Positions 4,040-28,184 of a DNA stretch of 56,244 nucleotides are shown piece after piece (within the stretch, counting starts at the first letter, position 1; each line of letters opens with the position of its first letter). The notes beneath the pieces were generated by a model. It saw only the letters and a list, made by a program, of their open reading frames with translations. It was not told the origin of the DNA and made no database searches. The stretch lies in IMG/VR virus record IMGVR_UViG_3300030419_002488, positions 1-56,244 of that record. One strand, given 5' to 3'. The translations under genes were made by a program, and so were the position numbers. The stretch comes from a virus (taxonomy: Duplodnaviria; Caudoviricetes).

Positions 4040-5926
4040 ATGGGAGCAACCTATACAAGACAATCTTCGTATAGTGATGGAGACGTAATAACTGCGGCTC
4101 ATACCAATGATGAGTTTAATCAGTTATTAGCGGCTTTCCAAGCATCAACGGGGCATACCCACGATGGTACAGCTAACGAAGGGGGACCAATTACTAAACT
4201 TCTAGGTAATTCTATTACACTGGGAGCAGGCACAGCAGGCACGGATATAACACTTACATTTGATGGTGAAACATCCGATGGTGTTATGTACTGGATGGAA
4301 GACGAAGATCACTTTAAATTTGCCGACGACGTTGTTATAGACAGTACAAAAAAGTTATATTTTTACGATGAAGGCGGAGAATATATCTACGCTTCTGCAG
4401 ACGGGCAGTTAGATCTTGTAGCGGGAACAGAAATTCAAATTGCAGCAACAACCATAGATATAAATGGTGCTGTTGATATATCAGGCAATACAACTATAGG
4501 TGGAAGTTTAATAATAGGTGGTAGCACTTTATCTTCTGCTGAACTAACATTTTTAGACGGAGTTACTGCAGGAACAGTATCAGCAAGTAAAGCACTTGTG
4601 GTTGATAGTGACAAAGATATAGCAAGTTTACGTAACATTACATTGACAGGTGAACTTGATGCAGGTTCTCTTGATGTATCAGGTGATGCAGACATTGATG
4701 GAACATTAGAAGCGGATGCAATCACAGTTGACGGGGTTGCACTAGCAACATATATTAGGGATACTGTTGGAACAAACATGCTTTCAAGTAACACTGAAAG
4801 TGGTATAACAGTAACTTATGATACATCTAATGATAATATAGATTTTGCGATTGATGCCGCACAAACAGGCATTACAAGTTTACTTGCTACCGATATAAAA
4901 ATCGGGGAAGATGATGAAACAAAGATAGACTTTGAAACTGCTGACGAAATACATTTCTACGCAAATAATGTAAGTCTAATATCTCTTACTAATGCAAACA
5001 GTGGTGACGCAGTATTAACTGTACCAACTGCAGATAAAAACTTTACAATTAAGGGAACAGATGGTTCTTCTGCAGTTACTGCTTTAGACATTGACATGGC
5101 GGCTTCTGGGGATGCTACATTTAACAATAAAGTTATTGCTGCTGAACTTGATATTTCTGGAGATGTTGATGTTGACGGAACACTTGAAGCAGACGCAATT
5201 ACAGTTGACGGAACAGCGTTAGCAACGTATATAAGAGATACAGTTGGCACAAACATGTTATCTAGTAATACAGAAAGTGGTATTACTGTAACTTACGACA
5301 CAAGCAATGATAACATTGACTTCGCAATAGATGCTGCACAAACTGGGATAACAAGTTTGTTAGCAACAGATATAAAGATTGGTGAAGATGACCAAACTAA
5401 AATAGATTTTGAAACTGCAGATGAAATACATTTTTACGCAAATAATGTAAGTCTAATATCTCTTACTAATGAAAATAGTGGGGATGCAGTGTTGACTGTT
5501 CCTACTGCTGACAAAAACTTCGCTATCAAAGGAACAGACGGCTCTTCAGGCATTACTGCTCTTGATATAGACATGGCAGATTCAGGTAAAGCTACCTTTA
5601 ACGGTGATGTTAACGTAGGTGGGGAAGTACAAACTGCAAATATAGGATATACTGATGGTGATAATGCGATGTCAATTGCAGACGGAGGAGCAGTTACTTT
5701 TTCACAAGCACCAGTATTTCCCGATGGATCAATTAACATAGCCGACTTAGATATAGACGGTGGAAGTGACATAGGGGCTGATTTAACTACATCAGACTTA
5801 ATTGTAGTAGACGATGGAGCAAGTGGGGCTAACAGAAAAGCTGCTTTATCGAGATTAACAACATTTATGAGTGGACAAGGGTTTTCAACAGACGATCCGA
5901 CCGCACTTGCCATCGCTTTGGGCTGA
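4040..5926 (+). CDS. Tail fibre protein with internal 159-aa duplication
   Basis: N-term YTRQSS...NDEFNQL...GHTHDG anchor; G/D/T-rich repeats; C-term ALAIALG. Confidence 0.8.
   Translation: MGATYTRQSSYSDGDVITAAHTNDEFNQLLAAFQASTGHTHDGTANEGGPITKLLGNSITLGAGTAGTDITLTFDGETSDGVMYWMEDEDHFKFADDVVIDSTKKLYFYDEGGEYIYASADGQLDLVAGTEIQIAATTIDINGAVDISGNTTIGGSLIIGGSTLSSAELTFLDGVTAGTVSASKALVVDSDKDIASLRNITLTGELDAGSLDVSGDADIDGTLEADAITVDGVALATYIRDTVGTNMLSSNTESGITVTYDTSNDNIDFAIDAAQTGITSLLATDIKIGEDDETKIDFETADEIHFYANNVSLISLTNANSGDAVLTVPTADKNFTIKGTDGSSAVTALDIDMAASGDATFNNKVIAAELDISGDVDVDGTLEADAITVDGTALATYIRDTVGTNMLSSNTESGITVTYDTSNDNIDFAIDAAQTGITSLLATDIKIGEDDQTKIDFETADEIHFYANNVSLISLTNENSGDAVLTVPTADKNFAIKGTDGSSGITALDIDMADSGKATFNGDVNVGGEVQTANIGYTDGDNAMSIADGGAVTFSQAPVFPDGSINIADLDIDGGSDIGADLTTSDLIVVDDGASGANRKAALSRLTTFMSGQGFSTDDPTALAIALG
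4670..5602 (+). repeat. Intragenic direct repeat, period 477 nt (about two copies)
   Basis: DGTLEADAITVDG...TALDIDMA.SG.ATFN occurs twice; TACGCAAATAATG at 4958 and 5435. Confidence 0.9.
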
Positions 5927-5940
5927 TATAGGAGAAAATA

Positions 5941-6300
5941 ATGGCAAATACATTTAAAGTAGTAACTTTTGCAGCCGAGCCAAATTCTGCAGGAACTCCA
6001 TATACTATTTATACCACACCAAGTAGCACAACAACAGTTGTAATTGGGTTAATCTTAACAAATATACATACTTCACAGGTTACTGCAGAAGTAGAACTTG
6101 TTAGTGACACATCAGGTGGTGGTAGAGGAGCTACGAACGGAACAGCGTTTCTTGCAAAAGATGTACCTATACCAGTAGGTTCGTCTTTAGAATTGTTATC
6201 GGGAGGTAAAGTAATACTAGAAACAACAGATATTTTAAAAGTGGACTGTAGTGTCGCTGACAAATTAAGTGGTACACTAAGTATAATGGAGATTACATAA
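5941..6300 (+). CDS. Virion structural protein (fibre-associated)
   Basis: MANTFK... beta-rich 119 aa, GGAG RBS; common arrangement after ALAIALG-ending fibres. Confidence 0.7.
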   Translation: MANTFKVVTFAAEPNSAGTPYTIYTTPSSTTTVVIGLILTNIHTSQVTAEVELVSDTSGGGRGATNGTAFLAKDVPIPVGSSLELLSGGKVILETTDILKVDCSVADKLSGTLSIMEIT

Positions 6301-6301
6301 T

Positions 6302-6754
6302 ATGCCCTATATAGGTAATGAAGTTCCTGCACACTTTCAGTCATCACCTGCAGTCGTAAGATTTAGTGGGGATGGTTCTGATACTACATTTGCATTAGGA
6401 AGAACTATAGGTTCTGTTCAAGATATACTTGTATCGGTTGATGGTGTTGTCCAAGACAGTGCCGCTTATACTGTTCCTGATGGTTCTACATTAACATTTA
6501 CTGCTGCACCAAGTTCAAATTCAGGTAATAATATTTTTGTTTATTTTCTTGAACCAAATGCAGGTTCAGTTACTCCTGCAGCAGAAAATAAAGGTAATTT
6601 TAAAGCAGGTGGTTTATTTAAAACAAACGCACAAACTTTAGATTCAAACGTAACTATCTTGGCTACAGAAAATGCACAAGTTACAGGTCCACTTACAGTT
6701 TCAAGTGGAGTTACACTTACTATTGAAAGTGGTGGAAGGTTGGTAACATCATGA
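6302..6754 (+). CDS. Fibre adaptor-like protein A (MPYIG family)
   Basis: FSGDGSDTTF..VSVDGVVQ..YT motif; C-terminus similar to 9298-9759. Confidence 0.7.
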   Translation: MPYIGNEVPAHFQSSPAVVRFSGDGSDTTFALGRTIGSVQDILVSVDGVVQDSAAYTVPDGSTLTFTAAPSSNSGNNIFVYFLEPNAGSVTPAAENKGNFKAGGLFKTNAQTLDSNVTILATENAQVTGPLTVSSGVTLTIESGGRLVTS

Positions 6755-7182
6755 GTAATATTTATGTAGATACAATACGAAAGACTGGTGGTTCATTAGG
6801 AACAGACATAAGAATTAAGAATACATCTGTATATGAATCTGATGGTGGCACAAGTGTTACACAGAATTTAGTGCAGGGGTTATGTAAACATTGGGTAAGT
6901 TTTGACCCATTAGACAGTAATAACTTGGAAGATTCATATAATAATGCTTCTGTTACAGATGTTAATACAGGACAGTTTACATTTACAAATACTAATAATA
7001 TGGCAAATGCAAATCATGCACCCTTAATAGGTTCAGAAATACAAACTGATTACCGAGATGCAGCAGATTCTGTATTATCTACACCACGCACCACAACTTC
7101 AATGGGTGCATATCATGTTGAAAACAATACGGCTACAGACAATGCTATTCTTACAATGGCAACATTTGGAGACCTAGCATGA
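6751..7182 (+). CDS. GDLA-family fibre tip paralogue A1
   Basis: QGLCKHW, DSYN, C-term FGDLA. Confidence 0.75.
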   Translation: MSNIYVDTIRKTGGSLGTDIRIKNTSVYESDGGTSVTQNLVQGLCKHWVSFDPLDSNNLEDSYNNASVTDVNTGQFTFTNTNNMANANHAPLIGSEIQTDYRDAADSVLSTPRTTTSMGAYHVENNTATDNAILTMATFGDLA

Positions 7183-7586
7183 GTACCTTAAAAACAAACA
7201 CCTTAACAGGTACAACTTCAGCAGGTAGCATTGTTGTTACAGGAGAGGGTGGTTCTACCACAACGAACTTACAACAAGGTCTTGCTAAAGTTTGGTGTTC
7301 TGCAACTATTAGTAGTAACACTCATACAATTCAGGATAGTCTTAATGTAACTTCTTTAACTGATGGAGGTGCGGGTATTACTTCTGTGGTCATTGCTAAC
7401 GATATGAATAATGATGATTATGCTGTTTCTGCTTGTATAGGAATAGATGGTGCAAGATGTTTTGCAAACTTAAATGCAAACTCTGATGTAACTACAGGGA
7501 GTTATAAAATGAATAGCTCAAATCATGCAGGTGGTTTTGAAGATTATGACGTATTTGGCAGTTCAATACACGGAGATTTAGCATAA
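7179..7586 (+). CDS. GDLA-family fibre tip paralogue A2
   Basis: NLQQGLAKVW, DSLN, C-term HGDLA. Confidence 0.75.
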   Translation: MSTLKTNTLTGTTSAGSIVVTGEGGSTTTNLQQGLAKVWCSATISSNTHTIQDSLNVTSLTDGGAGITSVVIANDMNNDDYAVSACIGIDGARCFANLNANSDVTTGSYKMNSSNHAGGFEDYDVFGSSIHGDLA

Positions 7587-8017
7587 TGGCAAACGGAACA
7601 ATAGCATTTGATACATTAACAACATCTGACCAAGTTAGCACTGGTACAGAGAAGTCTGTTGATACAAGTTATATTTATAATGGGGTTGCTAAATATTTAG
7701 TTCATTATAATCAATCTACTCCTGCTGTTTTAAAAAGTTTAAACAGTAGTTCTGTTTCAGATGATTCAGCAGGTCATTTTACAATTAACTATACAAATAA
7801 TTTTAGTGATGCTTTATATTTGTTAAATAGTGGACTTCATGAAAATACAGATGATGCAGATTCAGACAGAGGGGGTCATTCTATAGGTTTTGAAAACGGA
7901 CAAACAGAAACAACAGCATTGGCAAAAATAAATTATTTGTATGGTGCAAGTCAGAGTAGTGCTTCTACAGATGAGGATACAACTTCAAGCCATACTTTAT
8001 ATGGAGATTTAGCATGA
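7586..8017 (+). CDS. GDLA-family fibre tip paralogue A3
   Basis: GVAKY, SLNSSSVSD, C-term YGDLA. Confidence 0.75.
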   Translation: MANGTIAFDTLTTSDQVSTGTEKSVDTSYIYNGVAKYLVHYNQSTPAVLKSLNSSSVSDDSAGHFTINYTNNFSDALYLLNSGLHENTDDADSDRGGHSIGFENGQTETTALAKINYLYGASQSSASTDEDTTSSHTLYGDLA

Positions 8018-8502
8018 CAAAAATAGAAACACCAGAATTTCAGGGAACACATCTTTGGGATAGATTATGTTGGGCGAAAGAAAAGCTAGAAGGTAAACAA
8101 TCTGATTATCGTGTGGTATGGGAAGACCCTGATAATTTAGATGAGTGTGCAAAGATAACTATACCTGACCCTAACTGGATGGCTTGTGCATTACAGGGTG
8201 GCATATTACCACCAGTTGAAGTCTACTGGGCATTACAGGAAGATGAAGCTAAACCTGATTTTAAGAAACACACAAGAGGTTATTTACTGCATAATACAAA
8301 ACCGATTGATGCGATGACAGAAGAACAGGCAATAGAATATTTAATTATGAAGGATATACCACAAAGAGTGTGGAGAGATTATGAGAAAGCCAATAGACCT
8401 AGATTGGTTATCTGTAAAAAGGATCAGCTTCCAAGTACAAGAGTTTGGAGAAATGCTTGGAAGATTGATGAAGAAGTAAATAAACTTGAAGAAGTAGCCT
8501 AA
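8014..8502 (+). CDS. Tail-module hypothetical protein (possible fibre assembly factor)
   Basis: ATGA coupling; C-term LPSTRVWRNAW resembles VPSDRHFRNAW in the next gene. Confidence 0.65.
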   Translation: MTKIETPEFQGTHLWDRLCWAKEKLEGKQSDYRVVWEDPDNLDECAKITIPDPNWMACALQGGILPPVEVYWALQEDEAKPDFKKHTRGYLLHNTKPIDAMTEEQAIEYLIMKDIPQRVWRDYEKANRPRLVICKKDQLPSTRVWRNAWKIDEEVNKLEEVA

Positions 8503-8515
8503 AAGGAGATTAACT

Positions 8516-8887
8516 ATGGCAACAACAATGATAATGGATAAAGATGGAAAAAGTATCGATGCTTCTACAGCAACTGTTCCATCTGACCGACATTTTAGAA
8601 ATGCTTGGACACTTAATGGTAAGGTTATATCTGAAGATATGACTGAAGCTAAAAAGATTTTCCAAGATAAAATCAGAGAAGTAAGGAAACCTTTACTTGA
8701 AGAACAAGATGCTTTGTTTATGAAAGCATTGGAAGATGATGATTCATCTGCTCAATCTACAATTAAGACAAAGAAGAAAGCACTAAGAGATGCACCTGCT
8801 GCAAAGGCAATATCAGATGCAGACACTATTGCTAAACTTAAAGCATCTTGGGATTCAACTAATCTAGGCACAAGTCCTTACATATAG
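8516..8887 (+). CDS. Tail fibre assembly chaperone-like protein
   Basis: REVRKPLLEEQD...KKALRDAP motif like Tfa/gp38-type chaperones. Confidence 0.6.
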   Translation: MATTMIMDKDGKSIDASTATVPSDRHFRNAWTLNGKVISEDMTEAKKIFQDKIREVRKPLLEEQDALFMKALEDDDSSAQSTIKTKKKALRDAPAAKAISDADTIAKLKASWDSTNLGTSPYI

Positions 8888-8896
8888 GAGTAATAG

Positions 8897-9298
8897 ATGG
8901 CTTTAACTCAAGTTATAGGGTCGGGTATTGGGTCTATAGGAGCAACCACTGTAACTGGTGAAGGAACTGCTACGACTAGCCTACAACAAGGTTTAGCAAA
9001 AGCATGGATTAATTTAGATGGCACAGGAACTATTGGCACAAACGACAGTCTTAATACTGGGTCTATTACAGATAATGGAACAGGAGATTATTCAATAACT
9101 ATAACAAATGATATGAATAATGCTAATTATTCCCACACACATGGGGATTATACTTCTGATAGAAATGATGTTCAGGTTTCAGGAAGTGCAGGTAATGCAC
9201 CTGCTGCAGGTTCTATAAGAATACAGTGTGTTCAAACAGGAAATAGTCCAGATGATGCAGACCAAGCCTGTGTTACAATTCACGGAGATTTAGCGTAA
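8897..9298 (+). CDS. GDLA-family fibre tip paralogue (singleton, A2/B2-like)
   Basis: MALT start, TGEG..TSLQQGLAKAW, C-term HGDLA. Confidence 0.75.
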   Translation: MALTQVIGSGIGSIGATTVTGEGTATTSLQQGLAKAWINLDGTGTIGTNDSLNTGSITDNGTGDYSITITNDMNNANYSHTHGDYTSDRNDVQVSGSAGNAPAAGSIRIQCVQTGNSPDDADQACVTIHGDLA

Positions 9299-9759
9299 TG
9301 CCATATATAGGAAAAAGTCCAAGCAGAGGTGTAAGAAACAGATTCGTATACCAAGCAACAGAAGGGCAAACAACATTCAGTGGTAGTGATGCTAACTCAT
9401 TAACACTTAGTTATACAGACACTTTATATATGGATGTATATCAGAATGGAGTTTTGTTAAAAGCAGGAACAGATTACACTGCAACAAGTGGAACATCCGT
9501 AGTATTAGTTCAAGGTGCAAGTTTAAATGACCACGTAGAAATGATAACCTACGATGTATTTTCTGTTAATGAAACTTATACTAAAACAGAATCAGATGAC
9601 AGGTATCCATTCTTGGGAAACAACAGTATTATAAGAACAAATGGTAACACCATAAGTGCAGACATAACAATTAGTTCAAGCACCAATGGATTATCAGCAG
9701 GTCCTATTACACAGGATAATGCTACTGTTACTGTTAATGGTTATTGGAGTATTGTATGA
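9298..9759 (+). CDS. Fibre adaptor-like protein B (MPYIG family)
   Basis: GQTTF, VYQNGVLL..DYTAT.GTSVVL; C-term RTN..I...TI....N..SAGP as in 6302-6754. Confidence 0.7.
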   Translation: MPYIGKSPSRGVRNRFVYQATEGQTTFSGSDANSLTLSYTDTLYMDVYQNGVLLKAGTDYTATSGTSVVLVQGASLNDHVEMITYDVFSVNETYTKTESDDRYPFLGNNSIIRTNGNTISADITISSSTNGLSAGPITQDNATVTVNGYWSIV

Positions 9760-10166
9760 CAAGTCAATTAAATGTAGATAACATTGTAGATAAAGCAGGT
9801 TCAGGTGGCACGAATGTTAAGATAGGTAACACTTCTACTTATGTAGGTGAAAATAGTGGTATAACACGAAATACTGTTCAATGTGTAGCTAAAATATGGA
9901 GAAAATTTCAATCAGATGCAAGTTCTTATGATTCAATCGGTATATCATCAGGCACTGATAATAGCACAGGTAATTATACTCATACTTTTTCTAGTAATAT
10001 GAACGCAATTCATTATTCAAATACTTTAGGGAATAACACAAGTGGAAACTATATAATTACAGGGCATACAGTAGCGACAAGTTATTTTACAACTAAATCA
10101 ATGAGTGATAGCACATCGGCTCATGATGATGATGGTGCATTAACATTACATGGAGACCTAGCATAA
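9756..10166 (+). CDS. GDLA-family fibre tip paralogue B1
   Basis: ATG at 9756 (ATGA overlap, GGAG RBS); C-term HGDLA. Confidence 0.75.
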   Translation: MTSQLNVDNIVDKAGSGGTNVKIGNTSTYVGENSGITRNTVQCVAKIWRKFQSDASSYDSIGISSGTDNSTGNYTHTFSSNMNAIHYSNTLGNNTSGNYIITGHTVATSYFTTKSMSDSTSAHDDDGALTLHGDLA

Positions 10167-10591
10167 TGGGTAGTCAATTAAAAGTAGATACAATTACAGG
10201 TGTAACCACAGCAGGTAGTGTAGCAGTTACAGGTGAGGGAAACTCAACGACAACCAATCTCCAACAGGGATTAGCAAAGTGTTGGGTGAAACTTGATGGT
10301 ACAGCTTTATCAGGAACTGGTAGTACAGGGGTAGGTGATTCTTTTAACTTAACAAGTACAACAGATAATGGTTCTGGAAATTACACAATTACTATGAATA
10401 ATGATATGAGTAGTGCTAACTATTCAACAACAGCTTCCCCTAATGCTGACCTTACCAGTAGTGGTTATGGACTTTATGGTGGAACGAACAATAGCCATGC
10501 AGCAGGAAGTTTTGTTCTTATATCAAAACGAACTGATACTCCTACTGACAGTAATTATTTTGGAGCTACAGCACATGGAGATTTAGCATAA
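10166..10591 (+). CDS. GDLA-family fibre tip paralogue B2
   Basis: NLQQGLAKCW, DSFN, C-term HGDLA. Confidence 0.75.
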   Translation: MGSQLKVDTITGVTTAGSVAVTGEGNSTTTNLQQGLAKCWVKLDGTALSGTGSTGVGDSFNLTSTTDNGSGNYTITMNNDMSSANYSTTASPNADLTSSGYGLYGGTNNSHAAGSFVLISKRTDTPTDSNYFGATAHGDLA

Positions 10592-10977
10592 TGGCAAGTA
10601 TATTAAGAGTAGACACATTAACAGATGCAAGTAGTAATAATTCAATAGGCATGAGTTATGTTGCAGAAGGTTCAGCTAAATCATGGGCGAATTTAAATGG
10701 AACAAGCACAATAGCTTTAAGAGATAGTTTTAATGTAAGTTCAATAGCAGACGATGGAACAGGGGATTATGATTTTACATATACAAGTAATTTTGGGAAT
10801 GTAAATTATTCTATTTCATCGCATGGTAGTTTTACAAGTACAGGAGCATGGCCCACTTTAAATTCCGCAGAAGAAGTGCCTGCTACAACTTTTCATAATT
10901 ATAAAATGGTTGATAGAACTGGCTCTGCACAAGATGCAACCTACGCTTACTATTCAGCACATGGAGATTTAGCATGA
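10591..10977 (+). CDS. GDLA-family fibre tip paralogue B3
   Basis: GSAKSW, DSFNVSSI.D.GTG.Y, C-term HGDLA. Confidence 0.75.
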   Translation: MASILRVDTLTDASSNNSIGMSYVAEGSAKSWANLNGTSTIALRDSFNVSSIADDGTGDYDFTYTSNFGNVNYSISSHGSFTSTGAWPTLNSAEEVPATTFHNYKMVDRTGSAQDATYAYYSAHGDLA

Positions 10978-12074
10978 GTAAAGCAGCAGAATTAGCCAAG
11001 ATGGGTGAAGTCTTAACCAACAATCAAGTTGGTGGGCGAAGAAATATGCTTATTAATGGTGCTATGAATGTAGCACAAAGAAGCACAAGTGAAACTGGAT
11101 TAGGTGCAAGTGCAGGATATTTTACATTAGATAGATGGAAAATGGATTTTAATGCTACAGCAGGTCGCTTAACAATGTCACAAACTGCTGATGGTCCTAG
11201 TGGTTTTGCTAATTGTCTAAAATTAGATTGTACTACAGCAGATACTTCTATTGCAGCAGGTGAATACATTATGTTAGAGCAAAGACTTGAAGGACAAGAT
11301 GTTCAAGGTATCTGCAAAGGAACAGCAGATGCAAAACCTGTAACTGTTAGTTTTTATGTAAAAGCTAATGGGTCTTTTACTTTTGGTCTTGAACTTTCTG
11401 ATAACGATAATACTAGACAAATAACTAAACTTTTTGCCACAACTACAAGTTGGGTTAGACACGAAATTACTTTTCCTGCTGATACAACAGGAGCATTTGA
11501 TGATGATAATGCTCGTAGTTTACTCGCTACTTTTTGGTTACACGCAGGTTCAACATATTCAGGTGGTACATTAAATTCATCTTCATGGGCAAGTAGAACT
11601 CATGCTAATCGTGCTGCAGGAATTGGTAGCTTTTTTTCTAGCACCGACAATGAATTTTATATTACTGGAGTGCAAATGGAAATTGGTTCTACTGCCACAC
11701 CATTTGAACATAGGTCATATGGAGATGAGTTAGCTTTGTGCCAAAGATATTTTTATAGATGGGAATCAAGTTCTACTTATGCAGGAGTTGGTGTTGGTCG
11801 TGCTTATGATACAAGTAATTCAGTTGCTATGATAAATACTCCTTGTGCTATGAGAGCCAATGCTACTGTTAGTGTATCTGCTGTAGGCGATTTTGCTGTA
11901 GCAGGTATTGGTGGTACTCCTTCTTCAATTAGCAATGGCGAAAGAACAACAGATTTTAGAAGTTATAAATTAACAATTAATCAGGGTTCTACTCCTTTTA
12001 CATCAGGTACAATTTACCAATTAGAGTCTGATAATCAGGCAAACGCAAAGATTAATTTTGATTCGGAGTTATAA
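10974..12074 (+). CDS. Tail fibre / receptor-binding protein with carbohydrate-binding-like domain
   Basis: RNMLINGAMNVAQR, DRW, ITGVQMEIGSTATPFEHR..ELALCQRYF motifs. Confidence 0.8.
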   Translation: MSKAAELAKMGEVLTNNQVGGRRNMLINGAMNVAQRSTSETGLGASAGYFTLDRWKMDFNATAGRLTMSQTADGPSGFANCLKLDCTTADTSIAAGEYIMLEQRLEGQDVQGICKGTADAKPVTVSFYVKANGSFTFGLELSDNDNTRQITKLFATTTSWVRHEITFPADTTGAFDDDNARSLLATFWLHAGSTYSGGTLNSSSWASRTHANRAAGIGSFFSSTDNEFYITGVQMEIGSTATPFEHRSYGDELALCQRYFYRWESSSTYAGVGVGRAYDTSNSVAMINTPCAMRANATVSVSAVGDFAVAGIGGTPSSISNGERTTDFRSYKLTINQGSTPFTSGTIYQLESDNQANAKINFDSEL

Positions 12075-14936: not shown

Positions 14937-17356
14937 GTTTTGGATTAGCATTTGCAAAAGGACTTGTCGGCGGTTTTACAAAAAACATTGAACGAGAGAT
15001 TGAAGCACGAGGAGCTGACGATCAACGTCTTGCAAACTTAGAAGATTTTCTTTTTCAAAAACACGCTGAAGTAAACGCAGCAGGAGAAGGGTCTGTTCCT
15101 AAAGCGTTAGGTGAGATGTTGCAAGATGCAAAATCAAAAATGGATAAAAGAGGTCGTATTGATTTAATTGGTTCACCGGGAGACAGATTAAGTCTTGATA
15201 TAGGGCAATTAAACACAGCACTTTCTGAAGCAGACGATGATGATGGGTATATAACATTTGGTAAAAAGGGAACAAATCTATTTAAAATACCTTTACCTCA
15301 AGAACACGCAACTTACCACGATAAAACTATATTAGGTGATACTTTTAAAAGAACAGAAGCGTGGAATAATACTGTTATGACATATTTAGGAAATGAAAAT
15401 AATTTTAAAAAGCTCATGCTTGCAAATGAACTAAACCCGACTATACTACCCCATCTTTTACAATCTTATAAAGTTAATAAAGGAGAGTATCACGATGCTT
15501 GGATTGGCAAACAATACAAACAGGGAGTACTAAAAGACGCTATAAAGCATTTAGATTATAAAGGGAAGTATGGCCCTGAACTTGTTAAAAGACTAGATAA
15601 AATGGCAGGTATATTAAAAGATTCGTTGCTTAGTAAAACGCTAGAAAATAATAAAAAGTTATTTAAAAATAATAAAGAAGATCCAAAAGAAAATACTTTA
15701 TTTTTTTTAATTGATGATAAAGATGATAATACGGAAAAAGATGGTTTAGAATTTTTATCTTTATCTGTAACACCTGAAGAATATAAAGCAGCAACAAAAT
15801 TATCTCAACATTTTTTTAAAGACAAAAATGCTAAACCTTCTGATTACTTTCTTTACCTTCAACAAACACTTCCAAACGCAGTATTTGAAACAAACAAGGC
15901 GGGGTATGTAGAGCCTTTTCAATACGGTGGTAAAGAAAGTGTTGCAGCACAAGATAAAATACGATTAGTGTTAGAAACAGGTTTTAATTCTCTTAATCTT
16001 GTTAAAAATGGTTTTCTTAGTGGCCCTATGAATACTGAAGCTCAAAAAATGGCTTTATATAAATTATATGAAAAGGTAAATGGTAATAGGCTTAAACTAG
16101 CAATGGCAGTATCTCCTCTTATAACTCCAGAAAAAAGTGCTGAAGAAATAGCAGCAGAAGGTGGGGGCTTTGCTAAATATACACCTGCGTCTAAAATTGA
16201 ATCTATGTTACAAGATTTTAAAATAGATAAAACATTATTTGATAAAGCATACGAAAACACAGAAACTGCAATATTTAAATTAAATTCTATTATGGATTTA
16301 GAAAAGGATACTGCGATTGGTGCTAACTGGTTAAGAAAAGCATACGTAGCATTTGGGGGAGCTTTCAGTGAAGGGGGTGGTGTTAGTGGAATATGGGATA
16401 TTATAACGACAAAAGGTGGAGTAAAAGATATAAACAAAGACACTAAAGAAGCTTTTGAAACAACTTTAAAAGCGGCATATGAACGAGGAATTATAAGTAG
16501 TCTATCGAAATTTAGTATGGCGGATGCACTAAAATTATCTGTTGCTGCAGACATGGCTAGAGCAATCGATCCTAATGGAAGATTATCTAACCAAGATTTT
16601 TCTATACAATTAGACAGATTAGGTAATACTGTATTCGGGGGTAAAGAACAAACTATAAATAACTTAAAAGTTGTAATAGAAGAGTTCCAAAGAAGGATGA
16701 AGAGATTACAAGTTGTAAGAGAAATTTTTACAAAAAATGATCCAAGTAATCCATATGGCAGAGGATTAAGTATTAACGAAAGAAGATGGCTTCAGGCAGA
16801 TATGGTGGTAACTGATTTGTTAGGTCAAATAGAAAATAGTTTATTTTCAAATTCTTTAAATAGAAGTTCTGGTGAAGGCGGAGGAATAACATTTAACGAT
16901 AATTTACAATTTGAAAGTAATCGCTTTACAGCTCCTGACGGAGAAGCAATAATTGTAAAAGAAGGGACTGACGGTAAGCAATATTATTTTGGAAAAAATT
17001 CAGGCAACCAGTATGAAATGAGTAAATTAATTTCAAAAAGTAACGATCTTGAAGCCCAAAACAATAGCAATACGTTTGATTACGCTAATGATATTAATTT
17101 AAATAATAATCAAGTTCAAAACAACCAAACTAATAACCAAAGTAACAATGAATCAGGTTGGAAAAAACTAACATCTGATGAATTAAAAAAAGTAAAAGAA
17201 AATGTTATGGGGGGCAACGAAACAGTTAAAGGAGTTGTTGTAGGGGGCAACGGAAAGACTGGTTGGTTATTAAGAGGAAAAGATAATAACCGCCTTCCGG
17301 GAAAATACAAAAAAAATAAAGATGGCAGTTTTACAAGAATAACAGGATCACAATAA
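14933..17356 (+). CDS. Large internal virion protein
   Basis: 807 aa; Gly/Phe amphipathic N-terminus; DPNGRLSNQD motif. Confidence 0.6.
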   Translation: MSFGLAFAKGLVGGFTKNIEREIEARGADDQRLANLEDFLFQKHAEVNAAGEGSVPKALGEMLQDAKSKMDKRGRIDLIGSPGDRLSLDIGQLNTALSEADDDDGYITFGKKGTNLFKIPLPQEHATYHDKTILGDTFKRTEAWNNTVMTYLGNENNFKKLMLANELNPTILPHLLQSYKVNKGEYHDAWIGKQYKQGVLKDAIKHLDYKGKYGPELVKRLDKMAGILKDSLLSKTLENNKKLFKNNKEDPKENTLFFLIDDKDDNTEKDGLEFLSLSVTPEEYKAATKLSQHFFKDKNAKPSDYFLYLQQTLPNAVFETNKAGYVEPFQYGGKESVAAQDKIRLVLETGFNSLNLVKNGFLSGPMNTEAQKMALYKLYEKVNGNRLKLAMAVSPLITPEKSAEEIAAEGGGFAKYTPASKIESMLQDFKIDKTLFDKAYENTETAIFKLNSIMDLEKDTAIGANWLRKAYVAFGGAFSEGGGVSGIWDIITTKGGVKDINKDTKEAFETTLKAAYERGIISSLSKFSMADALKLSVAADMARAIDPNGRLSNQDFSIQLDRLGNTVFGGKEQTINNLKVVIEEFQRRMKRLQVVREIFTKNDPSNPYGRGLSINERRWLQADMVVTDLLGQIENSLFSNSLNRSSGEGGGITFNDNLQFESNRFTAPDGEAIIVKEGTDGKQYYFGKNSGNQYEMSKLISKSNDLEAQNNSNTFDYANDINLNNNQVQNNQTNNQSNNESGWKKLTSDELKKVKENVMGGNETVKGVVVGGNGKTGWLLRGKDNNRLPGKYKKNKDGSFTRITGSQ

Positions 17357-20300
17357 TGGAAATATTATCTAAAGACATGATAAACACTGAAAATGAAAAC
17401 AACGAAACTGAAAAAAACGTTGTTGTAGAACCTGAAAAAAAAGTAGTTGAAACAGATACAACTACAACAGATACAACTACAACAGATACAACTACAGAAG
17501 ATAAAAATCCGTTATCTTCACAGTACGCAGGATACTATGAAGATAGTTCTGATACAACTACAACCAATGCAGATAATGAAGTTGAAGTTAATGTTAACGT
17601 TGACCCCTCTGAACTCCCTACTGCTAATCTTTCTGATCCTAACCTTAAAAATATAGTTAAAAAAGATCTTGCGTTACAAAAAGAAGACCAAACTATAACT
17701 TTAGACAAAGTTTTGTCAGGAGAAATTAATTTTGTAAATAACAAAGAAATAAATCCTATTATTAGAGAAAAAGCAAATCAAGGGGATGCTAAATCTTTAC
17801 TTTATCTTGAATCTCAAGTTAATCAGGCGAAAAACGTAGATAAAGAAGTAACAATAGGGGGAGTACGAAAAAAAGAAGTTAGTATAGACCCACGTTTACA
17901 ACCAATACCTGAACAACATTCAGAGTCTTTAAAGGCATACGCTGAAGGAAGATTGTTAGTTTTAAATGCTTTACGAAAAAATAATCCTGCTACTAATGAA
18001 CCTTACGTTGTTGATACAGATGTGCAACAACTTATTGTTGATTATTTTAGCACAGGAAATTTTTACACAGAAATGTCTCGTAGATTTGCCCAATCAGGCA
18101 GAGGTATAACTTTACTACCTGTTCTTTTAAATATGGCATATAATCTTGCGGGGGCTACAAAAGATGCCTTCGATTTACCAGAGGATGTGCAAAAATATTT
18201 TTTTGGTGAAGTAGAAGACGAAACATTTGAAAAGTCTTGGGAATCAAGACAAGCAGGAATGGCAGAGTTTTATTCTAGGTACAAAACTACAGTAGAAAAG
18301 GTCTTTTCAGGATTAACTGCAGCTCAAGGGATAAACGATGATTTAAAAGAAAAATATATTGAAAGACACGGCATTGATCAATACAACGAATTTTATACAA
18401 TTAAAAATCCAGAAGGAAAAGTTATTGATATGCCTATAATTAGTACAGAAGTGGGAGAAGAGTTGTACAGATTAGGATTTCAAGAATTACCACTTGCTCA
18501 AAGATTTGCAGCAATGATTATAGAAAACGTAGGGTTTGGTGGGCTACTTGCAAAATTAAAAGTAAAAAAAGGTCAATTACAAATGCAAGATATTACTGAC
18601 CTTAAAACTAGCAACCCAACAAGATACAAAAATCTTAGCCCGATAGAAGTTTTACGAGTTTCTAAAATAGACAACGCTACAAATGCTTTTACTAAAGCGT
18701 ATCATCAAACTATAGCAACTCTCGGTAGAAAATTTAAAGCGAGAGGAGCAGTTGCTGCTCACCAAATAGATTTAAATAGAAAAAATACTTTAGAATTAAT
18801 GGACAAACAAATAGATGATTTAAAAAATCAACTAAACAATACGTCGTTACTTAGAAGAGAACGAGATTTAATTAATTCAAAAATTGAAAATATACAATCC
18901 CAAAAAGCAAAATACATTTTTCCGTATGCTCGTAAAACTTTTGTTAAAACTGTAATGAAAGATGAAATAGTTATGGGATTAGGGCAAGGGTTTGGATACG
19001 AAATAGCAAATTATTTTGGTTTTAGCACAGATGCAGGAGAGTTTTTTGGAGCTATGTCTACAGCAATTCAAGCACCCCAATTCTTAATAAGAAAAGGAAT
19101 AGGTATTCCTGCAGGGTGGGTCAACAGGTGGACAGGCGGAGCAGTAAGTAATTTTGCAGCCACCATAGAAGCTCTTCCTTTTATTCCTAAAGGTGCTTTT
19201 ATTGACAGACGGTTTGATACTTTACGAGATGAAATGGGAGAAGCCCTTACAGGAAAACAAAGATTAGCAATAGAAAAAATTGCAGAAATTATAAAAGATT
19301 TATCTCCTGATAAAAGAGAATTAGTGTGGCAATCAATTAATGAATACCAACAATTAAGAACAAGAATATTAAACCATTTTAAAGACCCAGAAAAAAAAGA
19401 AAAAGCTAGAAAACTTTTTTCTTTACAATTTTCTCATGTAACAGGGTTAGCTCCTCTAATAGCCCTAGAACGTAGAGCTGCTGTAAAACTTAGTGCGAAT
19501 GGAAAAAATCTTGATGAAGCAATTGAGTACCAATTACAATCAGAAAACGCAATGGCTGCGGCTACGGAAGCTATGGAAAATTTAAAAATAATGTTAAAAG
19601 AAGAGGTTGGTGTTGACATTACTGATAGAACTCTTGTAGCAGATTTTGCAGAAAATTTTAAAGACGCTTCTATTAAATTTGAACGAAACGTTAACGAAAC
19701 AAAAATAGAATACTTAAAGTTGTTAAACGATTTTAAAGATAAAATGTTAAGTAACCCTGAATTACCCCTTGACGAAAATTTAATAACTCGACTAGCTGAA
19801 ATGGAAGTTAAAGTAACACGAGGGGCAACAGATGATATTGAAAAACAAAGAGAAATATATCAAAAGGTAACTGAACAAGTTACAGAAGCATTAAATAAAA
19901 GATCAGAAAACATAATTGCACTTCGAGGTAAACCGGGATACAAAAAAAGAATGGGGCGGTGGATAGAAGATGTTTACGATGTTATGGAAGATAATTTACA
20001 AAATCAAAGCAGACTTATTTATAAACCTATTGATGATATGGAAGGTGAATATGATTTGACTTCTTTGGTTGATGATATGCTAGATAAAAAAGAAAATTTA
20101 GATTCAAACATATTAAGAAGTAAATTTGGAGCAGACGGAGAATTTTTTAAAGGTAAATCAGGAAGGTACGCCAGACAAGCTTTTGACGCTATGGCTAAAA
20201 GAGCAATAATAAAAGATTTAGGATTAGACGGAAAAGAGTGGGCTGAGTTAGTAACTTATCATACAAGTCCTGCAACTTTAAAAAACTTTCCTGATGATTT

Positions 20301-22143
20301 TTTAGGTGAAAGTGCAACTTACTTAGATATTGCTTTACATTTAAGTAGACAAGAAGGTTCAACTTTAAAACCATTTCAAGGTAAACCTTTTGAATTAGAA
20401 GAAATGAGAAGACATTTTATGGGAGTTGCAAGAAGACTAGAAAACTCTAATCCCTCGTTAAGTAATAAATACAACGAATACGCAAATAAAATAGATACTT
20501 TATTAAAAACAGATAAAGTAAAATACGAAAAAATTACTCAAGCAAGAAAACAATATCAAGCATTAAGATTTGATCCTAAACGTAAAGGTTCGTATGGGGA
20601 TGAGTTAGATAACGCTAGAATAGGACCTGCCTATGTTGACCAAAACCCTGATGGGTATAAATACCCTTACAAGAAGGGATTTCTACCTGAAAATTTCCAC
20701 GATGGTTTTGGAAAAAACATAGACGGTCTACTACAAGGTACGTTAAAATCAACAGATGAATTAAAAACCCAAATGGAACAATTAGTAAGATTTTGGGCAA
20801 GAGGAGATAATGCTCCCCCCCTTGTATTTGATGTAAGCACACCTCAAGGAAGAAAAAAACTTAAAGTTGTTAGTCAGCTTGTTAAAATGAGTTTATATGA
20901 ACATTGGGGTGAAGCTCGAAAAGCCGTTGTAGAAAAATTAAAAGCACAAGCTAAAGAAGGAATTAAAATTAAAGCTTCGGATTATAATTTTACGGCGGCG
21001 GATAATATTAATAAATTACAAGATGTTTTTGTTGTTAACGTTAAAACTGCAGATGGAGAAATTCAACCTCGAACATTAGTTGATGTAGGTGATATTGTAG
21101 CTGAAGAAAAAGAACTTATGACTTTAATGGAATTAAGTGGTGATATGCAAAAAAGGTATGATAAATTAGCTAGAGATATAAATAGTACAGGGGGATTACT
21201 TAAAGAAAAAGCAATGAAAGAAATTAGTATACAAGAAAAAGGTGTAAAAGAGTTAGATAAAATAATTGGCTCTGATTCAATGCAGATATATAACAATTAT
21301 GTTTATAAAAAACCTCCTAGTATGATGTTAGCACTTAAAGAACAATATGTTGATACTAAACTAGCGGCTTTAGGAGATACCGTAGATACGGAAACTCTTA
21401 TGACAAGTCGCCTTGTGTTTGAAAAAGAATTTGATCAAGGTATGCTGTACCATGTTATGAACGCCCTTCAAGAAAGATCAGAATTAAAAAGAAGCCCTAA
21501 AACTTTAACTGGTTTTGATGGTGATCAATTTAATTTAATGACTATGGATAATGCAGGACAACTTGCATCTGATTTAAGTGAAGAGTCTACTCAACAAATT
21601 TTAAAACAGCTTGGGTTTACACAAGACCACGTTCAGCACGTACAAGACATAGCTCGATACATGGAATTTGCACAAGGATCATCTCTTGCAAGATATGATT
21701 TACAAGGAAATGTAAGATCTATATCTCCTAACGAATTAATTAGTCGTGCCTTTAACTTAGCAAGAGGAATGGTTAGTCCAACTTATGTTGCGGGTGAAAT
21801 GGGTGTTAGATTAGCAATGTCAAAAAATATTCAAATAATGAATCTAGCGGCTCAAAGTAAGGAAGCAGCAAGCATAATGCTTGACATGCTTAAAAACCCT
21901 AGAGCAGTATCACCAGATAGAGTAAAAACATTTGGAGTATTAGTAAATGAGTTTGTAATTACAGAGTTTACAAGACTTGGTTTAAAAGCTCCACAGTTTT
22001 TACCTCAAGACGACATTATGGCTGCACGTATGCAACAAAAGGAATTTTCGTTTGATTCGTTTAAACACCTATTTAAAGGTAGAAAGCCACAACCTATTGA
22101 AAGAGAATACATAACTCAACCATTAAGTGCCGTAAAAAGTTAA
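17356..22143 (+). CDS. Very large internal virion (ejection) protein
   Basis: 1595 aa helical, last large gene of the structural operon (T7 gp16-like position). Confidence 0.65.
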   Translation: MEILSKDMINTENENNETEKNVVVEPEKKVVETDTTTTDTTTTDTTTEDKNPLSSQYAGYYEDSSDTTTTNADNEVEVNVNVDPSELPTANLSDPNLKNIVKKDLALQKEDQTITLDKVLSGEINFVNNKEINPIIREKANQGDAKSLLYLESQVNQAKNVDKEVTIGGVRKKEVSIDPRLQPIPEQHSESLKAYAEGRLLVLNALRKNNPATNEPYVVDTDVQQLIVDYFSTGNFYTEMSRRFAQSGRGITLLPVLLNMAYNLAGATKDAFDLPEDVQKYFFGEVEDETFEKSWESRQAGMAEFYSRYKTTVEKVFSGLTAAQGINDDLKEKYIERHGIDQYNEFYTIKNPEGKVIDMPIISTEVGEELYRLGFQELPLAQRFAAMIIENVGFGGLLAKLKVKKGQLQMQDITDLKTSNPTRYKNLSPIEVLRVSKIDNATNAFTKAYHQTIATLGRKFKARGAVAAHQIDLNRKNTLELMDKQIDDLKNQLNNTSLLRRERDLINSKIENIQSQKAKYIFPYARKTFVKTVMKDEIVMGLGQGFGYEIANYFGFSTDAGEFFGAMSTAIQAPQFLIRKGIGIPAGWVNRWTGGAVSNFAATIEALPFIPKGAFIDRRFDTLRDEMGEALTGKQRLAIEKIAEIIKDLSPDKRELVWQSINEYQQLRTRILNHFKDPEKKEKARKLFSLQFSHVTGLAPLIALERRAAVKLSANGKNLDEAIEYQLQSENAMAAATEAMENLKIMLKEEVGVDITDRTLVADFAENFKDASIKFERNVNETKIEYLKLLNDFKDKMLSNPELPLDENLITRLAEMEVKVTRGATDDIEKQREIYQKVTEQVTEALNKRSENIIALRGKPGYKKRMGRWIEDVYDVMEDNLQNQSRLIYKPIDDMEGEYDLTSLVDDMLDKKENLDSNILRSKFGADGEFFKGKSGRYARQAFDAMAKRAIIKDLGLDGKEWAELVTYHTSPATLKNFPDDFLGESATYLDIALHLSRQEGSTLKPFQGKPFELEEMRRHFMGVARRLENSNPSLSNKYNEYANKIDTLLKTDKVKYEKITQARKQYQALRFDPKRKGSYGDELDNARIGPAYVDQNPDGYKYPYKKGFLPENFHDGFGKNIDGLLQGTLKSTDELKTQMEQLVRFWARGDNAPPLVFDVSTPQGRKKLKVVSQLVKMSLYEHWGEARKAVVEKLKAQAKEGIKIKASDYNFTAADNINKLQDVFVVNVKTADGEIQPRTLVDVGDIVAEEKELMTLMELSGDMQKRYDKLARDINSTGGLLKEKAMKEISIQEKGVKELDKIIGSDSMQIYNNYVYKKPPSMMLALKEQYVDTKLAALGDTVDTETLMTSRLVFEKEFDQGMLYHVMNALQERSELKRSPKTLTGFDGDQFNLMTMDNAGQLASDLSEESTQQILKQLGFTQDHVQHVQDIARYMEFAQGSSLARYDLQGNVRSISPNELISRAFNLARGMVSPTYVAGEMGVRLAMSKNIQIMNLAAQSKEAASIMLDMLKNPRAVSPDRVKTFGVLVNEFVITEFTRLGLKAPQFLPQDDIMAARMQQKEFSFDSFKHLFKGRKPQPIEREYITQPLSAVKS
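17452..17496 (+). repeat. 15-nt tandem repeat x3 (TDTTT)
   Basis: ACAGATACAACTACA three perfect copies, in frame. Confidence 0.95.
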
Positions 22144-22365: not shown

Positions 22366-22586
22366 ATGTAATTACGTGACCCACTCATTATATCATCTCC
22401 ACACTTTCGTAAATATCTAAGAAGTGATGCAACCTGACTCGTGCCTGTATACATAGGTAATCCCGAGTTTAACTCTTTTTCTAAATCTTCGGGTTTGACT
22501 GCTTCATAATTCATCTCAACATTACCATCCTTATTCAGATAGGCTTCTATTGAAAATAATTTCGCTTTGACTTTACTTAATTTCAT
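22362..22586 (-). CDS. Hypothetical protein
   Basis: Likely start MKLSKVK; last gene of the minus-strand operon. Confidence 0.65.
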   Translation of the reverse strand: MKLSKVKAKLFSIEAYLNKDGNVEMNYEAVKPEDLEKELNSGLPMYTGTSQVASLLRYLRKCGDDIMSGSRNYI

Positions 22587-23058
22587 AAACTGAATCCAAT
22601 TCACCTATTTTTAAATTATAACAATCCGCCTTAAAAACAAATCCATTATCAGAATCAACTTGACCCTTCCTATACAAAGTAGCTTTATTGTAAAAGTCTG
22701 CTTTAGAAATCCCCCCAAGAATCCAAGCTTTACGTAAATCACACAATAAGCGAACAAACACATACGCATCACAATCTTGTTCCGTTCCGTGTAACGCTAC
22801 AGAACAATCATAATTAGGCATAGGTTTTGTGTTGCAACGTTTTGTTTTAACATCTATCCGTTTACCTTCTTTAACTAAATCGTAATGATATGTGTTAACT
22901 TCTTTCGCCTTAATACTATCAGCAACAATCACCTCTCCTATCGCCCCTACAACGTTACTAGAGCCACCTGTAATACTTCCCTGAAGGATGCCCATCTGGG
23001 AAGCCTTTTCCCTCGCACGGAGCATGTGTTCGTCACTAATCGGTATCTCAATAATCAT
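22573..23058 (-). CDS. PD-(D/E)XK-fold nuclease-like protein
   Basis: GAIGE...YD....RIDVKT motif. Confidence 0.5.
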   Translation of the reverse strand: MIIEIPISDEHMLRAREKASQMGILQGSITGGSSNVVGAIGEVIVADSIKAKEVNTYHYDLVKEGKRIDVKTKRCNTKPMPNYDCSVALHGTEQDCDAYVFVRLLCDLRKAWILGGISKADFYNKATLYRKGQVDSDNGFVFKADCYNLKIGELDSVYEIK

Positions 23059-24987: not shown

Positions 24988-25303
24988 TACTATTCCTTTC
25001 TTTTATATTTATAAGTCTATCAAGATACCATCGTGCTTTCTTTAAATCTTCTGCCCCATTTTTATATCTATATCTCCACAAGTATTTTAATATGTTGCCC
25101 TGCAAATAATATTCAAATCCCGCCCCCGTTGCAGATTCAATAGCTTCGATAGTCTCGATAGTAGCGTTGTTATAATGTGGCGGGTGATTTACCATATCAG
25201 CCTTACCTTTGCCCGTTAAATATTTGGGCGGAATATTTTCTTCATTTTTCATATTCTCATATACCTCACTAATTCTTTGCCTTATCATTTCTCTGTATTT
25301 CAT
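24980..25303 (-). CDS. DUF3310 / T7 gp1.7-like nucleotide kinase family protein
   Basis: DMVNHPPHY...GNILKYLWRY..KNG.EDL.KA.WYL. Confidence 0.85.
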   Translation of the reverse strand: MKYREMIRQRISEVYENMKNEENIPPKYLTGKGKADMVNHPPHYNNATIETIEAIESATGAGFEYYLQGNILKYLWRYRYKNGAEDLKKARWYLDRLINIKERNSNE

Positions 25304-25307
25304 ATCA

Positions 25308-25655
25308 TTAATCTTTACCAAAATCAACTTCAATTACATTATCTCTATATTTTGGTTTTGTTTGGTGTGTATTATCTTTCATCTCATTAAACAACCTGCC
25401 AGTTGTATATTTAAACGCCAATTCAGACATACCAAAATTATACAGATCTTCTCCTTTTGTTTGCAACAACCCTACGAGTCCTTCGTGCATAACTGATGCT
25501 ACAGAGTGATCCATCTCATTTCTGTAATTTGTATTTGTTGTATCGTAGGCTACCATTTCAAATTTACCATCTTCCATGTCTGTCAAAATAATATAATAGT
25601 GACCTTTCTTTAAGTCAAATTGTCTCATCTTTTTTTTAATTTCTTCTTCATCCAT
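25308..25655 (-). CDS. Hypothetical protein
   Basis: Operon context; C-term NVIEVDF. Confidence 0.7.
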   Translation of the reverse strand: MDEEEIKKKMRQFDLKKGHYYIILTDMEDGKFEMVAYDTTNTNYRNEMDHSVASVMHEGLVGLLQTKGEDLYNFGMSELAFKYTTGRLFNEMKDNTHQTKPKYRDNVIEVDFGKD

Positions 25656-26019
25656 TTTTAAACCACTCCATAGGTATTGTTCCCTCTGCCCACGTAAAAT
25701 CGTATCTGTTACACCAATCAGCGTAAGTTGTTTTACTTCCTCTATATATTCTGTTACGTGCGTTCATAAATACAAAACGAATATCCAAATCTTTGTGTTG
25801 ATCTTTTACAAGAACCATCTTTACTCTATCTGCCTTATCAAGATGCCCTTTTGCTTCAATAAATATATCTGTATCGGGTAAATAAAAATCTGGAGTGTAT
25901 GTTCTTACTTTAGGAACGTAAAGGAATTTTTTTGATTCGTATTCAAATTTTACTTTGTTGTTAGCCAACACTTTTGCTAACTCCAATTCAAACTTTGATC
26001 TGTATTTTACTCTTTTCAT
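25648..26019 (-). CDS. T7 endonuclease I-like Holliday junction resolvase
   Basis: YRSKFE, YTPDF, IEAKG, LDIRFVF, KTTYADWC; start moved to ATG at 26019. Confidence 0.9.
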   Translation of the reverse strand: MKRVKYRSKFELELAKVLANNKVKFEYESKKFLYVPKVRTYTPDFYLPDTDIFIEAKGHLDKADRVKMVLVKDQHKDLDIRFVFMNARNRIYRGSKTTYADWCNRYDFTWAEGTIPMEWFKNG

Positions 26020-28140: not shown

Positions 28141-28184
28141 AAATTTTTCCTTTTCTGTTTATTTAAGGTTAATGTAATTAGAGA

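Follow-up and report, generated by a model that had tools for sequence, protein, structure and literature searches.

A proposed many-headed host-recognition module with slot-fixed necks and exchangeable knobs in an HMO-2011-type podophage

Several described systems resemble the gene arrangement reported here. In K1-5, SP6 and KP32 an adapter or branching domain binds the short N-terminal peptides of further fibres (PMC6872550; PMC13352976). In the phiKMV-like Ar-KM an anchor fibre, gp44, is followed by three variable open reading frames (ORFs), gp45-47, whose products are present in virions (bioRxiv 10.64898/2026.05.18.726046), and in the virophage DSLV2 three consecutive tail proteins form a heterotrimer according to AlphaFold3 and co-purification (PMC12724248). 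HMO-2011-type phages, to which the present locus belongs, are counted as one of the most abundant groups of viruses in upper-ocean waters (PMC9038755). We analysed the IMG/VR virus record IMGVR_UViG_3300030419_002488 over its whole length of 56244 bases (the window), a record rated complete, and propose that host recognition in this HMO-2011-type podophage is encoded as a module by the block 4040-12074. The block carries two adaptor genes, each followed by three small tip genes, and the evidence assembled below points to a many-headed host-recognition device rather than to a fibre mixed from three proteins.

The seven tip genes of the block are all read from the plus strand, as are its other features. 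Their products of about 135 amino acids (aa) all have GDLA as their C-terminal end and match phrog_11355 ('tail fiber protein') at E values of 4.3e-5 to 2.1e-16, and tips of this type number exactly seven in the genome, with no eighth. Each was recognised by ORF, PHROG match and alignment. Module A consists of the adaptor A0 (6302..6754) and the tips A1 (6751..7182, neck of 46 aa), A2 (7179..7586, 37 aa) and A3 (7586..8017, 36 aa), module B of the adaptor B0 (9298..9759) and the tips B1 (9756..10166, 46 aa), B2 (10166..10591, 38 aa) and B3 (10591..10977, 30 aa). The ATG of B1 at 9756 overlaps the B0 stop, and a TTG at 9744 is open too. The remaining tip, X (8897..9298), has an anchor of its own, MALTxV, a type-2-like neck and a GDLA knob. 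An earlier note on this DNA, made from its letters, had described two paralogous adaptor-plus-three modules and a seventh copy at 8897 after two helper genes; all the ORFs that it named are present, and the phrog_11355 matches, together with the two adaptors that begin with MPYIG and are 25% identical, confirm this layout.

All tips share one anatomy, namely a slot-specific docking peptide of about 10 residues, a neck of slot-typical length and an exchangeable knob of about 95 residues that is bracketed by the AKxW and GDLA motifs and makes up about 70% of each tip protein. The first ten residues are slot-specific (module B anchors include MTSQLNVDTI, MASxLKVD and MASELRVNTL) within a pattern common to all tips, hydrophobic-x-V-D/N-T-hydrophobic. 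The earlier description of a common C-terminal domain with very variable interiors holds: K46, S62, S67, D70, G74 and GDLA are invariant in the seven tips, and knob identity within the window is 28-41% in every combination, with no positional pattern. The claim that N-termini match position by position within the window stands firmly for A2/B2, whose necks are 73% identical. For A1/B1 and A3/B3 the figure is only 40%, which is not above some non-matching pairs; A1 and B1 do share a neck of equal length and an NTS.Y motif, which had been given correctly except for a shift of one column.

Relatives were collected by scanning IMG/VR with c2, a conserved gene between the two modules that is described below. 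The scan gave 444 relatives, of which 80 loci were kept (labelled L), a selection that samples one phage group. Genes were walked one by one from each adaptor with ATG, GTG and TTG allowed as starts, and the first tip in relatives frequently starts at a GTG overlapping the adaptor stop. Module counts include the window and HMO-2011, exclude 31 modules cut by contig ends and contain several near-duplicate loci, so that they are not independent. Three tips with VDT-type anchors follow the adaptor in 41 of 42 complete first modules and in all 30 complete second modules; three consecutive genes are thus conserved as a trio in 71/72 complete modules, in agreement with the earlier expectation of conserved order and number. 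Among the complete first modules, 36 have three GDLA tips, five have two GDLA tips and one other head (with a small chaperone-like ORF after 3 of these 5), and one has two tips only. The complete second modules comprise 24 with three GDLA tips, three with two GDLA tips and another head, and three with seemingly four tips, the fourth having an N-terminus typical of the F2 slot that follows B3. One locus (L018:316-1585), with a B-type adaptor, a B1-type tip and an A3-type tip directly before c1, looks like a module-joining deletion or a recombinant.

The regular count of three per hub is an argument for an ordered heterotrimer, the arrangement that the earlier note had proposed, in which one chain each of tips 1, 2 and 3 would assemble on the hub (or only their necks would co-assemble) to give one asymmetric three-knob tip per fibre. 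Neighbouring genes overlap through ATGA or TAATG, which fits translational coupling and, for a heterotrimer, would suggest equal dosage. The translational coupling that had been claimed earlier does agree with these overlaps; it extends over the whole block 4040-12074, beyond the two quartets. The invariant knob core (K, S, S, D, G and GDLA) could likewise serve as a universal interface between different knobs, and DSLV2 provides a precedent (PMC12724248).

Necks and knobs are inherited differently. The conserved K of AKxW was taken as the boundary between neck (N-terminal, 26-66 residues) and knob in each tip, and the nearest neighbour of each part was sought in another locus, with matches above 95% identity excluded. 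The nearest neighbour of the neck came from the same module and slot in 142/160 cases, that of the knob in 33/171, which is about chance (one in six). The neck tree requires 21 changes of module-and-slot label against 83.4 in 200 shuffles (minimum 76), the knob tree 93 against 97.5 (minimum 85). With relatives added the positional pattern is far beyond chance, in necks only; the expectation of three positional clades in 1-2-3 order is borne out by necks and gene order and fails for knobs. A docking peptide that stays with its slot and a distal part that does not are also seen in adapter and anchor-branch systems. Slot-specific necks would also suit a heterotrimer. Knobs that form no slot clades and are replaced singly, with their neighbours unchanged, argue against it.

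Such single replacements are directly visible. Among the 1596 pairs of 57 modules, nine share one knob at a level of at least 80% identity with both other slots below 45%, one shares two slots and ten share all three. The two knobs of one module compared with each other never exceed 49% identity, a dissimilarity that is in keeping with three non-equivalent subunits and counts for the heterotrimer. The A2 knob of the window is 84% identical in protein to the slot-B2 knob of L056. The B2 knob (10260..10590) is an example of a swapped cassette, with 87-100% DNA identity to the slot-A2 knob of L003 (one 30-nucleotide (nt) bin at 80%) and flanks at 30-70%. The breakpoints in the DNA coincide with the QQGLAK codons and the GDLA stop, and these two junctions are repeated DNA in all seven tip genes. 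Single knobs are exchanged between all slots, and the earlier idea of a branched, combinatorial receptor-binding system is supported. In four marine metagenomes from four studies, contig joints were seen that keep the neck and the GDLA junction and skip the knob, from 7279 to 7569/7572 (X3, X4, X12) and also from 7624 to 8003, 10643 to 10963 and 6870 to 7175; the sides of these joints measure only 21-36 letters, and joints of this kind are often due to other organisms or repeats. Low read cover over the knobs was not counted as evidence, and no RNA run was listed as containing the sequence.

Neck lengths within a module are often unequal (46/38/30, 38/38/65 and 38/66/38, for instance), with differences of up to 27-28 residues, and this again speaks against a tip mixed from three chains. 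A stagger in steps of eight residues (necks of 46/38/30) was considered as a rule; it fits the window and 10 of 26 tabulated second modules, fails elsewhere and was dropped.

A further line of evidence is what the slots accept. In HMO-2011 a GDLA tip, another head with a Phage_tail_APC chaperone and a second GDLA tip come in this order after each adaptor; slot B2 holds a C1q-domain head (E 4e-10) and slot A2 a non-GDLA head, each with its own chaperone. GenBank labels these counterparts simply tail fiber proteins. Roseophage CRP-1, in contrast, encodes a single fibre of 1080 aa. A Peptidase_S74 fibre of 272 or 337 aa (E 3e-11 and 8e-13, above the Pfam cut-off) occupies slot B2 of L048 and L027; its first 23 residues are almost identical to those of the slot-B2 GDLA tip in L051. 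In slot A1 of L039 there is a head of 178 aa, after which comes a Phage_tail_APC chaperone of its own. C1q heads, S74 fibres and collagen-tailed fibres belong to families that trimerise from one kind of chain. C1q or other non-GDLA heads with a private chaperone, or S74 fibres, could not share a mixed knob with two GDLA domains, which tells against the heterotrimer, as does the lone GDLA tip in the X slot.

The six slots of the two modules are complemented by two further ones, so that the block has eight anchored slots. In relatives the heads found in the X slot, recognised by its anchor MALTxV, are of C1q-domain, Gly_rich_2, S74 or unknown type; a small chaperone frequently accompanies them, and 11 small ORFs found in the scan of this slot match Phage_tail_APC. 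The eighth slot, F2 (10974..12074), encodes a 366-aa fibre head with the anchor MSKAAELAK (phrog_4492, E 6.3e-51); after B3 in relatives the same anchor is found with other heads, GDLA knobs included.

Between module A and the X tip lie two genes that are always paired. The first, c1 (8014..8502), encodes a conserved 162-aa protein and is a possible assembly factor; it matched no Pfam or PHROG family, and its Atlas matches are unnamed viral clusters only. The second, c2 (8516..8887), encodes a conserved 123-aa protein that matches phrog_20196 (E 8e-29) and, weakly, tail-fibre-assembly PHROGs, and is probably a fibre-assembly chaperone common to GDLA knobs; it is 74-97% identical over 80 loci whose knobs are unrelated. 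Its match to Phage_tail_APC (PF16778) reaches 13.3 bits (E 0.076), the gathering cut-off being 26.6 bits. Aligned by hhalign against 13 small ORFs of relatives, of which 11 match PF16778 and the two from L082 and L083 were unscanned, c2 gave a probability of 72% and E 3.4e-5 over 43 columns, and it thus appears to be distantly like the private chaperones of non-GDLA heads. A short DNA and protein motif, RNAW, is common to both genes, at 8449-8470 near the C-terminus of c1 and at 8597-8618 in the N-terminal third of c2.

The adaptors A0 and B0, each of about 150 aa, would be truncated tail fibres that keep a T7-like attachment domain, as judged from matches to Pfam Phage_T7_tail, phrog_18673 and annotated tail fiber genes. 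A0 matches phrog_18673 at E 3.1e-30 and Phage_T7_tail (PF03906) at 18.6 bits (E 1.6e-3), below the gathering cut-off of 25.2 bits; B0, identified by its ORF and the Hub profile, gave no match to this Pfam family. HMO-2011 gp41 scores 23.7 bits against it, and 31/79 adaptors of relatives match it at E<=0.01, the best at 3.7e-7. For residues 7-107 of B0, 78 phage records, some of them from T7-like pelagiphages, contain a matching gene annotated as tail fiber, with 41-57% identity among the matches listed, HMO-2011 and Yersinia phage YerA41 excluded. A PDB sequence search with the adaptors returned antibody light-chain noise only, and a T4gp10-like branching domain was found neither in Pfam scans of 79 adaptors nor in that search.

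The best conserved part of the adaptors is their last 45 or so residues, which in A0 form a hub motif (about residues 100-150, 6599..6751) whose profile match reaches the frame end and which is strongly conserved in relatives; in B0 the motif lies at about 9610-9756. The two adaptors have it in common, and it is always the C-terminal end of its protein, with tips following. In single-module relatives an adaptor of 61-63 aa with little beyond the hub motif still stands ahead of three tips; the mini-adaptors of L005, L006, L023 and L056, of this same size, have a YIGKSG-like start and the hub motif without the T7-like attachment domain. In L082, another phage type, three tips and a c2-like gene come after a 252-aa fibre that has the hub motif at its end, and in L083 two tips come after a 110-aa hub protein. 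By tblastn the motif was also found in proteins of cyanophages and a Lentibacter phage.

The knob is not confined to this phage group. A profile of 147 members matched 30036 representative proteins at E<=1e-3 (representative proteins or clusters are labelled P below). Several matches are single-gene fibres that end in a knob: P0003 joins a MPYLG adaptor domain, a shaft and a knob, and P0002 and P0005 have other N-termini followed by shaft, type-2 neck and knob. P0008 carries the knob terminally on a long fibre, with the sequence cut before GDLA, and P0009 has collagen repeats and a knob whose end differs and lacks GDLA. A knob that can terminate a single-gene fibre, in one case a collagen-like one, is a further point against an obligatory mixture of three chains. 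P0010 has nine tandem knobs with a tip-like anchor at its start. One sequence, P0001, fuses a neck and half a knob to a type IX secretion sorting domain and is possibly chimeric.

Other family members count for the heterotrimer. Proteins of about 345 aa in which linkers of about 12 residues connect exactly three tandem knobs (P0014, P0017, P0018, P0020, P0074 and P0084; 6 among the 150 clusters listed) could be the fused form of a three-knob tip, and in one such family the three repeats are positionally orthologous, with 11/12 best cross matches; in P0084 the knobs are a recent internal triplication. These proteins come from other metagenomes and carry no anchor, and their genomic context was not found, scans with P0014 giving only separate-tip loci. 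A 459-aa hypothetical protein of Agrobacterium rosae, P0253, matches P0014 at E 8.3e-11 over about 31% of the query. In 531 knob sequences the first knob strand covaries with the last (the GDLA strand), from which we infer that the two termini of the knob sit next to each other at its base, a geometry that would also suit three knobs around one axis. A single-chain fold of P0014 (alignment A4; pLDDT 71.2, pTM 0.41) showed no confident packing and decides nothing on the heterotrimer.

The same family bears on another reading, a serial chain in which adaptor and tips 1, 2 and 3 would be joined end to end, each N-terminus sitting on the preceding GDLA end. GDLA stands at the very C-terminus in 277/301 family ORFs, as such a chain would lead one to expect, and in P0004, a single sequence on a 1052-nt contig, a slot-1 tip is naturally fused to a slot-2 tip by read-through. 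We nevertheless regard a chain as very improbable: the adaptors have no GDLA end, the last tip and the lone X tip retain GDLA with no follower, non-GDLA heads occur in the middle slot, and according to the covariation the GDLA strand neighbours the first knob strand at the base of the knob and is not distal.

Regarding the fold, the model of P0014 shows confident eight-strand sandwiches in repeats 1 and 3, with repeat 2 below 50, and the knob is accordingly predicted to be an eight-strand beta-sandwich. The best solved matches of the model (VIA-align) are distal C-terminal domains of tailspikes (phiAB6, Z 7.5; Pam1, 7.4; LKA1 gp49, 6.3), followed by the AP22 gp53 fibre tip (6.7), H-type lectins (6.1 and 5.5) and the R2 pyocin fibre foot (5.4); C1q and TNF members reach Z 4.0-4.5 only, below the tailspike domains. 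Models that lack a clear relative commonly reach a best Z of 7-8. Foldseek retrieved no PDB entry at E<=1e-3, a PDB sequence search with the knob gave nothing (best E 1.4), and an Atlas search with A2 gave unnamed viral clusters only. The window tips did not match Pfam C1q, and hhalign of the GDLA profile against the C1q-type heads of relatives gave a probability of 0.2%, i.e. no profile relation. Arrays of this fold are also present in the structures predicted for tail fibres of cyanophages (Syn5, ACG-2014f). Going by the solved matches of the P0014 model, the knob fold resembles lectin-like C-terminal domains of tailspikes.

Taken together, the heads behave as autonomous units, the slot-fixed parts are the docking peptide and the neck, and the nearest known design is an adapter with docking peptides; separate, probably homotrimeric tips are therefore favoured. 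We see about an even chance that autonomous tips of this kind dock through slot-specific peptides on a three-socket hub. Each tip product would assemble alone, most likely as a homotrimer, aided by the common factors c1 and c2. Three tips would then dock simultaneously on one hub, their distinct N-terminal peptides each engaging a socket of its own, and the outcome would be a branched fibre bearing three different knobs. With a second hub and the X and F2 slots, a virion could display up to eight different receptor-binding heads, and homologous recombination at the conserved junctions would move single knobs across slots and genomes and in this way drive the evolution of host range.

Several points weigh against this reading. 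Autonomy alone does not explain the strict number three, and we have no solved model for a trimeric hub that offers a different socket to each of three trimers. The proteins that carry exactly three knobs on one chain, positionally orthologous in one family, taken with the adjacent knob ends, would suit three different knobs around one axis, and arrays of up to nine knobs, as in P0010, could mean that the knob is a monomeric module. The structural matches are middling, and the loci, having been selected via c2, represent one phage group and are in part near-identical. The ordered heterotrimer, although weakened, thus keeps real support, and we consider it unlikely rather than refuted. If it were true, one fibre would read three receptors at once, the triple-knob single chains would be its fused form, and knobs would be independently replaceable through one conserved interface.

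The common pattern in the first ten residues of all tips could alternatively mean that each hub trimer has a single coaxial site for which the three homotrimeric tips compete, so that every virion would carry a random mixture of tips as a form of bet-hedging. In P0002 the neck directly follows the shaft, as it would in a coaxial joint, and no unusual symmetry is required. This explanation leaves unaccounted for both the strict three and the conservation of three anchor types, each in its own slot over many lineages, and seems to us quite unlikely, a shade more so than the heterotrimer.

The window is a complete HMO-2011-type podophage and encodes portal, major head protein and tail tube genes; no tRNA genes were found in it. 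Among cultured phages, Puniceispirillum phage HMO-2011 comes closest in the fibre region, with 34% of the query aligned at 69% nucleotide identity, and the terminase-portal region also matches HMO-2011-type pelagiphages and roseophages. The block opens with F1 (4040..5926), a 628-aa fibre-like protein with an internal duplication, identified by its ORF with weak PHROG matches only, whose HMO-2011 counterpart gp43 is annotated as tail fiber; two copies of a block of about 190 residues are visible in its translation, and TRF gave no report of them. The gene S (5941..6300), just upstream of A0, encodes a conserved 119-aa structural protein (phrog_26609/1276) that sits before the first adaptor in relatives as well. 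Elsewhere in the window, a perfect 15-nt tandem repeat of 3.1 copies (17451-17496) lies within a 1595-aa ORF (17356-22143) that has no PHROG family, and a minus-strand gene block with inverted GC skew (22573-32377) lies between the plus-strand structural and replication blocks.

In the literature found on HMO-2011(-type) phages or heterotrimeric tail fibers, covered by titles and the beginnings of abstracts and with the original HMO-2011 paper outside the search, the present architecture is not described, and host recognition by HMO-2011-type phages is not described in the literature searched either. The term 'tail fiber' is absent from the main text of PMC9038755, PMC6918029 mentions fibre variation in general terms only, and PMC4819975 assigns HMO-2011 gp44 as tubular tail B. 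If up to eight small knobs, two three-socket hubs and recombination of single knobs are indeed combined in one phage, this would help to explain the microdiversity of this genome region and would provide a compact natural plug-and-play scaffold for receptor-binding domains. Since the knob family is very large, with its tens of thousands of representative clusters, and recurs in cyanophage tail fibres, a solved structure and an identified receptor would bear on many marine phages. Whether trimers are mixed or separate is directly testable, HMO-2011 being in culture.

Of the known systems, the closest are K1-5/K1E/SP6, with gp37 as adapter for gp46 and gp47, and the anchor-branch arrangement of KP32/KP34, where the design has been demonstrated experimentally and here is read from sequence. 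As in K1-5, SP6 and KP32, a small tail-attaching protein or domain is combined with further receptor-binding proteins that have a short conserved N-terminal peptide and an exchanged distal part, and the start of the second fibre of KP34, MALxxLV, a docking heptapeptide, resembles the X-slot anchor MALTxV. Whereas one or two fibres are docked there, three tips would dock per hub here, with two hubs and two further anchored slots, and the tips are tiny knobs of about 135 aa instead of large depolymerase spikes. In the Pfam and PDB sequence searches a T4gp10-like branching domain was not recovered for the hub motif. Like the present locus, Ar-KM combines a T7-like tail and a short, conserved and trimeric anchor fibre with three much more variable genes that follow it. 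In Ar-KM the N-terminus of the first variable protein, gp45, inserts into the anchor, with a single gp45 in the trimeric knob, i.e. a 3:1 mismatch; its three ORFs are not reported as paralogues in the available account, and the likeness drawn here is one of description only. DSLV2 likewise has three consecutive short tail-protein genes conserved as a trio. Their products have relatives among the fibre proteins of marine phages; they are modelled after the needle tip of T4 gp37, and biochemical data support their heterotrimer. The locus differs from DSLV2 in that knobs shuffle independently, neck lengths differ and slots take unrelated heads; positional clades and joint inheritance of three partners, as would mark a trio of that type, were found for necks only. 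Finally, A0 and B0 appear to begin with an attachment domain of the kind seen in the tail fibre T7 gp17, and the fused relative P0003 is, like gp17, one chain; unlike T7 gp17, the fibre of the present phage would be split after the attachment domain and branch into three tips.

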